From Escherichia coli (GTDB lineage Bacteria > Pseudomonadota > Gammaproteobacteria > Enterobacterales > Enterobacteriaceae), in NCBI RefSeq assembly GCF_003334405.1, contig NZ_QOWM01000003.1: a stretch of 64,000 nucleotides of DNA. One strand, 5' to 3'. The translations under genes and the position numbers were made by a program. Below the pieces are notes generated by a model. It did no database searches, was not told the DNA's origin, and saw only the letters and a program-made list of their open reading frames with translations. Of the stretch, positions 63,417 to 63,959 are shown piece after piece; the first letter of the stretch is position 1; each line of letters starts with the position of its first letter.

Positions 63417-63959
63417 TTAAGAATCAGCCTGACTCGGGATCAGTTTTTGCCAGATAACTGAAACGTATTTTGCCTGGTAACGGGCGTCATCAAGTGCATT
63501 ATGGCGCTCACCTTCGAATGGAATAGCCGTTCTGGCATCGAAGTCTATGGCTTTCCCCAGCTCAACGATTGTGCGTACATCGCGATCGTTGTAGTAACGC
63601 CACGGGCAGGGGATCCCCTGCCGTTCGTATGAACGGCGCAAAATCGTGTTGTCGAAGTTGGCTCCATTTCCCCAAACCTGAACAAAAAATTCACCGGAGT
63701 TTTCGTCGATAAATTCTCGCAATTGTAACAGTGCATCATCTAACGGGATTTCATCGGTCATAATGGCAGATTGCGCTTCGCGTGATTGCTTAAGCCACCA
63801 TTTAATGGTGTCCCGATCAATGACTCCGCCAGCAGTTTCCAGATCGATAGTCTTACTAAATTCCGGTCCCATATCTCCGGTTTGCGGATCGAAAAATATT
63901 GCACCTATTGAGATGATCGGGGCATCAGGATTTTTTCCCATGGTTTCAAGGTCGATCAT
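63417..63959 (-). CDS. Prophage DEDDh-type 3'-5' exonuclease (DnaQ-like fold)
   Basis: 180-aa ORF with Exo I (MIDLETMG, D-x-E), Exo II (VWGNGANFDNTIL) and Exo III (HNALDDARYQAKY, H-x4-D) motifs. Confidence 0.75.
   Translation of the reverse strand: MIDLETMGKNPDAPIISIGAIFFDPQTGDMGPEFSKTIDLETAGGVIDRDTIKWWLKQSREAQSAIMTDEIPLDDALLQLREFIDENSGEFFVQVWGNGANFDNTILRRSYERQGIPCPWRYYNDRDVRTIVELGKAIDFDARTAIPFEGERHNALDDARYQAKYVSVIWQKLIPSQADS

Follow-up and report, generated by a model that had tools for sequence, protein, structure and literature searches.

The window analysed here, a stretch of 64,000 nucleotides of Escherichia coli DNA, closes with a minus-strand open reading frame of 180 residues (63417-63959 in the list of open reading frames), which the sequence-only reading had taken for a small stand-alone gene. 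We find that this frame encodes the C-terminal domain of a protein of 823 aa, whose gene the window edge cuts, and that the protein, judged from its sequence, is a relative of RecE with a swapped nuclease of opposite polarity. The explanation that we favour, with a probability of about 60% for the statement as a whole, is that this protein would carry out annealase-independent, stand-alone degradation or trimming of DNA 3' ends during prophage induction.

The gene model follows from the open frame and from identical loci. In-frame stops are absent 5' of the ATG at 63959 up to base 64000, and the minus-strand frame translates as HEITSTSRTCDHL-MIDLE... Among E. coli chromosomes that match 61600-64000 with 100% identity (2401 bases compared), the covering CDS has 2472 nt and encodes 823 aa, the product being WP_000048342.1, annotated as 'exonuclease' or '3'-5' exonuclease'; in some identical chromosomes an IS element has cut the covering CDS to a fragment. 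With the frame open to 64000 and a CDS of 823 aa in the identical loci, the ATG at 63959 lies inside the gene: it corresponds to Met644, and the window contains the last 194 codons only. What the list of open reading frames reports is the first ATG inside the window, so that the start at 63959 is an artefact of the window edge, and ORFs in such a position are not to be taken as complete genes. An identical 823-aa protein is encoded by Escherichia phage PhiR42_1 (from ECOR13), with the annotation 'exodeoxyribonuclease VIII'. A 180-aa stand-alone DEDDh gene starting at ATG 63959 would agree with the listed ORF and with the stand-alone homologues of ~180 aa in other phages, which start at the equivalent position (MNHLMVDLETMG), but it is refuted as a gene model by the missing in-frame stop, by the single 823-aa CDS of the loci identical over the compared stretch (6079 blocks of the protein collection contain the exact protein) and by the lack of a Shine-Dalgarno-like sequence 5' of this ATG, as read from the sequence.

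The gene and its neighbours lie in the window as follows.

63417-64000, minus strand: 3' end of the exonuclease gene, last 194 codons and stop; the gene extends past the window to the equivalent of 65888 (823-aa CDS annotated in the identical loci L001 and L002).
63960-63998, minus strand: linker codons HEITSTSRTCDHL, residues 631-643, leading from the RecE-like acidic/zinc-ribbon region to the nuclease domain (frame translation).
63093-63344, minus strand: excisionase, 83 aa, the next gene downstream of the exonuclease (phrog_539, E 1e-35; annotated as excisionase family protein).
61778-63073, minus strand: integrase (phrog_1 integrase, E 3e-75; annotation in L001).

The place of the gene had been read as the one where lambda and Rac carry Red/RecET, and rightly, the exonuclease gene directly adjoining xis-int. 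When the identical loci are followed beyond 64000, a check that had been proposed, the same CDS continues to 823 aa and is succeeded by ydfD, dicB, ydfC, ydfB, ydfA and dicA. The locus forms the left arm of a lambdoid prophage of the Qin type, adjacent to rspB, with int, xis, exonuclease, ydfD, dicB, ydfC, ydfB, ydfA and dicA in this order in the L001 annotation; the early-left operon runs dicA / ydfA-ydfB-ydfC-dicF-dicB-ydfD-exo-xis-int, and the exonuclease gene is given as its last. The ydfE pseudogene of K-12 equals residues 1-256 of the 823-aa protein at 100% identity, after which IS2 interrupts it, and by this identity the 823-aa protein is the intact form of K-12 ydfE. Our literature search found no functional study of ydfE.

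Some further features of the locus were observed. The 72-bp gap between the exonuclease stop (63417) and the xis start (63344) holds a G+C-rich inverted repeat, CGCCGGTTG ... CAACCGGCG, at 63374-63405, with a stem of 9-10 bp and a loop of ~14 nt; no U-run comes after it on the transcribed strand and its fold z-score is only -1.9. This repeat could be an RNA processing/stability element or a weak terminator modulating xis-int expression. A Chi octamer, GCTGGTGG, is present at 63978-63985 on the plus strand, within the exonuclease gene and just upstream of the DEDDh domain. PhiR42_1 (L006/L043, PV340562.1; 48.7 kb, from ECOR13) has a complete Qin-type gene set, including relBE, hokD, flxA and cold-shock genes, as well as full lambda-like head and tail genes, and apparently the 'cryptic' Qin of K-12 has complete relatives usable for genetics.

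The identification of the frame as a DnaQ-like DEDDh domain with all three Exo motifs stands, by its Pfam match, its invariant D-E-D-H-D set and its fold match. Profile search aligned the 180-residue stretch end to end with PF16473 (Rv2179c-like 3'-5' exoribonuclease domain; E 4.3e-67) and also with the RNase_T/DnaQ family PF00929 (E 6e-5). A scan of the full protein with the Pfam profile library detects the C-terminal domain only (642-813), the other domains named below being taken from precomputed annotation; an NCBIfam search with the 180-aa stretch found no family, and with the full protein PADLOC yielded no more than a weak, generic DEDDh match (E 2e-5). Alignment A1 comprised the domain, three stand-alone phage homologues and T4 DexA, and alignment A3 the domain with eleven homologues of 27-74% identity. 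The sole invariant acidic or His positions in a 12-sequence alignment that includes T4 DexA are D3, E5, D103, H153 and D158 (D646, E648, D746, H796 and D801 of the full protein), and they align with D7, E9, D119, H186 and D191 of DexA, the set that PMC12153337 gives as catalytic in DexA and in the epsilon subunit of Pol III. The AlphaFold2 model of the domain (pLDDT 88.8, pTM 0.86) has a DnaQ-type, RNase H-like alpha/beta fold; its best PDB match in Foldseek, and nearest solved structure, is T4 DexA (8KEL, E 3e-12, TM 0.74); RNase T, REXO2 and Orn (oligoribonuclease) rank behind it, and these four matches lie in the range E 3e-12 to 1e-6. The five catalytic D, E, D, D and H residues are thus all in place, and the nearest characterised relatives are the phage or prophage enzymes T4 DexA and EcD rather than a host housekeeping paralogue. 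To judge from the alignments and the predicted fold, the DEDDh assignment is sound, its motif match being far beyond chance, and for the 823-aa protein we infer a 3'-5' exonuclease activity. The predicted elements of the domain are the following.

63450-63965, minus strand: residues 642-813, the DEDDh 3'-5' exonuclease domain (PF16473, E 5e-67 when the full protein is scanned; AF2 model; DexA match).
63945-63953, minus strand: Exo I, D-x-E, D646/E648 in 'MIDLETMG' (invariant in A1 and A3; DexA D7/E9).
63651-63653, minus strand: Exo II Asp, D746 in 'GANFDNTIL' (invariant in A1 and A3; DexA D119).
63486-63503, minus strand: Exo III, H-x4-D, H796/D801 in 'HNALDDA', the 'h' subtype (invariant in A1 and A3; DexA H186/D191).

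Taken as a whole, the 823-aa protein almost certainly has the anatomy of a RecE scaffold in which a DEDDh domain replaces the RecE nuclease, as its sequence comparisons indicate for three successive parts. The first is an N-terminal module of ~260 aa (Pfam YdfE_N), whose confidently predicted fold is without resemblance to any solved structure. The second, residues 262-627, is homologous to residues 278-592 of Rac RecE and contains a zinc-ribbon-like CxxC-x8-CxxC motif and an acidic linker. In BLASTP against K-12 RecE these two segments align with E 2e-61 and 39% identity overall, rising to ~85% near the zinc ribbon and the acidic linker; the aligned stretch ends at the region where the RecE PD-(D/E)XK nuclease domain begins. 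The third part, the DexA-like DEDDh domain, sits where RecE has its PD-(D/E)XK 5'-3' nuclease; the RecE nuclease domain (about 600-866; domain limits from PMC11611040) gave no alignment with the 823-aa protein in BLASTP, and PF12684 is absent from the Pfam list of the latter. The NCBIfam RecE model NF007259 matches residues 246-623 at model positions 271-600 (E 1e-83), with a score of 281.6 that lies far below the cut-off of 1269. In the precomputed Pfam annotation the 823-aa protein reads YdfE_N, YdfE_C and Rv2179c-like, and K-12 RecE reads Exonuc_VIII and DUF3799 (PD-(D/E)XK). The phage annotation 'exodeoxyribonuclease VIII', a common one, is misleading for genes of the DEDD type.

The scaffold belongs to a narrow family, since an exhaustive, profile-free search with residues 1-640 returned only 247 clusters at E <= 1e-3; with the full protein, the homologue search gave E. 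coli copies only, of 88-94% identity. Module sequences were compared with 48 long cluster representatives, among which all four combinations of head and tail are present.

YdfE_N, middle region and DEDD: the 823-aa protein itself.
RecE_N, middle region and DEDD: e.g. P0128.
YdfE_N, middle region and RecE-like PD-(D/E)XK: P0131, P0198 and P0225.
RecE_N, middle region and PD-(D/E)XK: P0234 and P0251.

In P0128, residues 1-270 are 99.6% identical to K-12 RecE and the tail is 98.9% identical to the DEDD domain of the window. As read from the module comparison, recent exchanges between the DEDD and PD-(D/E)XK forms have occurred.

Other tails were seen on the same scaffold. A third C-terminal module, phrog_7838 ('exonuclease'), is found on a YdfE_N/RecE-like scaffold in P0129, P0134, P0135, P0154, P0168 and P0187 and at L051:5001-7717, where the gene is followed by a Sipho_Gp157 gene; this module has no significant Pfam match and a faint Rad52 hint (E 0.3), and Pfam scans of P0135 (phrog_7838 type) and P0126, both relatives with other C-termini, gave nothing significant. 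Scaffold proteins of 541-684 aa with no recognisable nuclease, and with no RecT nearby, occur in L060, L070, L071, L073, L085, L102 and L103. 'RecE-2' proteins have been described as lacking a nuclease domain (PMC12315714), and the nuclease-less scaffold proteins may be of this kind, or else products of truncated genes.

The nuclease type goes together with the presence or absence of RecT. The best-matching 80 IMG/VR viral contigs were fetched by the conserved central motif (short motif alignment) and then classified, and among them the DEDDh form was the more frequent one, a DEDD C-terminus being present in 51 loci (RecE_N head in 24, YdfE_N in 19, truncated N-terminus in 8). In these best-matching 80 loci, in which the systematic annealase search covered the RecT type only, a RecT-like gene was found anywhere in the locus in 0/51 of the DEDD type, whereas 13/13 loci with a PD-(D/E)XK C-terminus have one immediately downstream, overlapping the stop codon; 7 of the 80 have neither a recognisable nuclease nor RecT. 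Fisher's exact test of nuclease type against RecT gives p 8e-14, a value that overstates independence because the loci are related E. coli prophages. In the genes inspected individually, xis-int directly follows the DEDD type, and after the PD-(D/E)XK type the next gene overlaps the stop codon and is RecT in Rac and a phrog_561 RecT-like gene in two loci. No annealase is annotated among the 76 features of the PhiR42_1 record, and no SSB or anti-RecBCD genes in the annotated left arms of the inspected loci. Across the 80 classified loci, one scaffold carries two nucleases, the 5'-3' PD-(D/E)XK always with RecT and the 3'-5' DEDDh never with it.

In the RecT position of one PD-(D/E)XK-type locus (L050:7565-8380) we observed a 271-aa protein of PHROG 3657 (function unknown) with no Pfam match, which may represent an unrecognised annealase family.

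The DEDD form is both abundant and conserved. DNA of the DEDD domain is present in 4069/5426 complete E. coli genomes (75%), with up to 7 copies per genome. The IMG/VR loci hold 41 distinct DEDD-domain DNA sequences, of which 41/41 keep D-E-D-H-D, and the median dN/dS of the domain over 634 pairs from these loci is 0.10. To judge from these values, the domain is under purifying selection and its active site is selectively maintained.

That the role of the gene is not obvious from sequence, as had been said, we can only endorse, and the role proposed here is one that we infer. The dicBF operon is regulated by DicA. In the explanation given at the outset, derepression of the DicA-controlled early-left promoter would lead to expression of the 823-aa protein, predicted to attack DNA 3' ends as a 3'-to-5' exonuclease that depends on Mg2+ and works by two-metal-ion catalysis. 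Its RecE-type scaffold would supply the same targeting or oligomerisation as in RecE, whatever that is, and the process would amount to stand-alone trimming or degradation of DNA ends at prophage induction. Possible outputs would be the degradation of host or foreign linear DNA, as by DexA when scavenging, or the removal, not the creation, of 3' tails. Since its polarity is opposite to that of RecE and RecT is absent, the protein would not be an exonuclease-plus-annealase recombinase of the Red/RecET type.

DicB confers phage resistance, and dicB lies in the same operon, which is consistent with another role, that of an 'HREX'-type nuclease for defence or superinfection exclusion, which would selectively degrade incoming modified-cytosine (T-even) phage DNA and spare the host. 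The purifying selection on a gene within a mostly cryptic prophage points in the same direction, as do the Pfam family and fold shared with T4 DexA and EcD. T4 DexA is a DNA 3'-5' exonuclease of solved structure (PDB 8KEL/8KEN; PMC12153337, 2025), and EcD, an E. coli DexA homologue ('HREX'), has been reported to be active on 5hmC-DNA, which it digests, and to confer protection from T4 even at leaky expression levels (PMC12153337). An EcD-like sequence, which we found in viral contigs via the published primers and the A78 landmark (PMC12153337) and not from an accession, encodes a protein of 189 aa that starts with MIDTET, carries Ala at position 78 in agreement with the paper and is 37% identical to the domain of the window, a likeness that also speaks for a defence role. 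The residues that DexA uses for 5hmC recognition argue against it: they have been assigned to W152 and D169 (PMC12153337), and the equivalent of W152 is Tyr in the protein of the window and Y/C/T/N, never W, across the fused clade, while that of D169 is Ala or Val, this half of the comparison being the weaker as the alignment around D169 is loose. Moreover, the PADLOC match (E 2e-5) is weak and generic, the gene sits in a repressed early-left operon, and the need of a defence nuclease for a RecE scaffold would stay unexplained. Overall, we consider this role unlikely.

With regard to EcD itself, its identity with the protein of the window was considered and rejected, the primers leading to the MIDTET... 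family of 189 aa at 37% identity. The EcD-like protein is encoded on the predicted viral contigs L019, L023, L025, L030, L034 and L036, and the C-terminus implied by the published EcD reverse primer differs by one base from the viral-contig copies; the gene for EcD may belong to a prophage and not to the host.

A role as a recombination accessory is likewise doubtful; the protein would process ends or flaps within a pathway that is SSB-linked or depends on the host (RecA/RecBCD/RecFOR), much as the stand-alone homologues presumably do for Rec modules. Such a role is suggested by the stand-alone homologues of 56-59% identity that lie between SSB and Abc2, with an annealase adjacent, in epsilon34 and Bas106, which makes a recombination function of the domain family conceivable; DnaQ-like 3'-to-5' nucleases are found inside some lambdoid Rec modules, that of epsilon34 for example, and those of the epsilon34 type are regarded as legitimate members (PMC12315714, 2025). 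T4 DexA has a part in intron homing, which proceeds by double-strand-break repair (PMC12153337), and the RecE scaffold is retained in our protein, full-length RecE having been reported to enhance linear-linear recombination (PMC11611040). However, the same survey places the 'sporadic', int-proximal DnaQ-type genes explicitly outside the Rec module and states that the usual effect of this superfamily's 3'-5' exonucleases is to reduce recombination through the loss of 3' tails (PMC12315714). The count of RecT-like genes in DEDD-type loci (0/51) and the left arms of the inspected loci, with no SSB or anti-RecBCD gene annotated, also argue against such a role, and so does PhiR42_1, which with 4 + 2 Chi sites in 48.7 kb is not Chi-rich; its assignment to the 'no Rec module, Chi-rich' class (PMC12315714) was ruled out on this count.

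It is very unlikely that the protein is an RNA or oligonucleotide exonuclease, that is, an Rv2179c-like exoribonuclease or a nanoRNase acting on RNA 3' ends or second messengers, possibly in counter-defence: although the Pfam family takes its name from Rv2179c, a 3'-5' exoribonuclease of M. tuberculosis, the NCBI name is '3'-5' exoribonuclease domain-containing protein' and the fold search lists RNase T, REXO2 and oligoribonuclease directly behind DexA, DexA itself, the solved and characterised relative that comes nearest in sequence as well as in fold, is a DNA exonuclease, the domain stands in for a DNA exonuclease on the RecE scaffold, and there are no signalling-related neighbours.

Beyond the trimming or degradation of 3' ends at induction, which we prefer as the role of this gene, a more general idea can be put forward only tentatively and with low expectation: that the N-terminal and central region of RecE is a general scaffold fitted interchangeably with nucleases of opposite polarity, the DEDDh form being annealase-independent and distinct from recombineering-type recombination. 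If this were true, the job of the DEDDh form might be, for example, 3'-tail removal that blocks host or rival recombination or repair, or the destruction of linear foreign DNA at induction, and the N-terminal region of RecE would have a function independent of 5'-3' resection, one that a comparison of both natural chimeras could take apart. The two nuclease forms of the family offer a natural experiment on the N-terminal two-thirds of RecE, relevant to direct cloning with full-length RecE, and they bear on the recurrence of 3'-5' exonucleases in lambdoid early-left operons. As a gene, ours is ordinary, since it is already annotated, in thousands of genomes, and extremely common; Pfam has domains dedicated to it, and a structural characterisation of its catalytic family appeared in 2025. 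The exchange of nucleases on a RecE scaffold, with its strict anticorrelation with RecT, is not described in the literature that we searched, and a RecE-scaffold fusion of a DnaQ-type nuclease is not among the lambdoid recombination modules surveyed in PMC12315714.

Among the closest known systems, YdfE of the K-12 Qin prophage is 100% identical to residues 1-256 of the protein and has ydfD, dicB and dicF as shared neighbours; the K-12 copy, however, is cut by IS2 and is without the RecE-like region and the exonuclease domain, whereas the window has the 3' end of an intact gene. T4 DexA is the closest solved protein by sequence (E 1e-7 with a single sequence, 1e-78 with a profile) and by fold (TM 0.74), and the D-E-D-H-D catalytic set is common to both, but identity is ~26% and DexA is a stand-alone protein of 227 aa with extra loops, whose 5hmC-recognition residues, W152 and D169, are not conserved in the fused clade. 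EcD is of the same Pfam family and is likewise encoded in E. coli, apparently in viral contigs too, yet it stands alone at ~189 aa and keeps the tryptophan that the fused clade lacks. Salmonella phage epsilon34 gp34 and Escherichia phage Bas106 gp31 share 56-59% identity over the whole domain and a place in an early-left operon; they are stand-alone proteins of ~182 aa, encoded between SSB and Abc2 beside an annealase, whereas the domain of the window is fused to a RecE scaffold, without annealase, SSB or Abc2, and has ydfD/dicB and xis as neighbours. Finally, RecE of Rac in K-12 occupies the same genomic position, as a large early-left gene near xis-int, and has the homologous central region; its N-terminus is unlike the 260-aa YdfE_N of the Qin version, recT follows recE but not the exonuclease gene of the window, and the RecE C-terminus is a 5'-3' nuclease of the PD-(D/E)XK type (PF12684) where that of the 823-aa protein is a predicted DEDDh nuclease of 3'-5' polarity.
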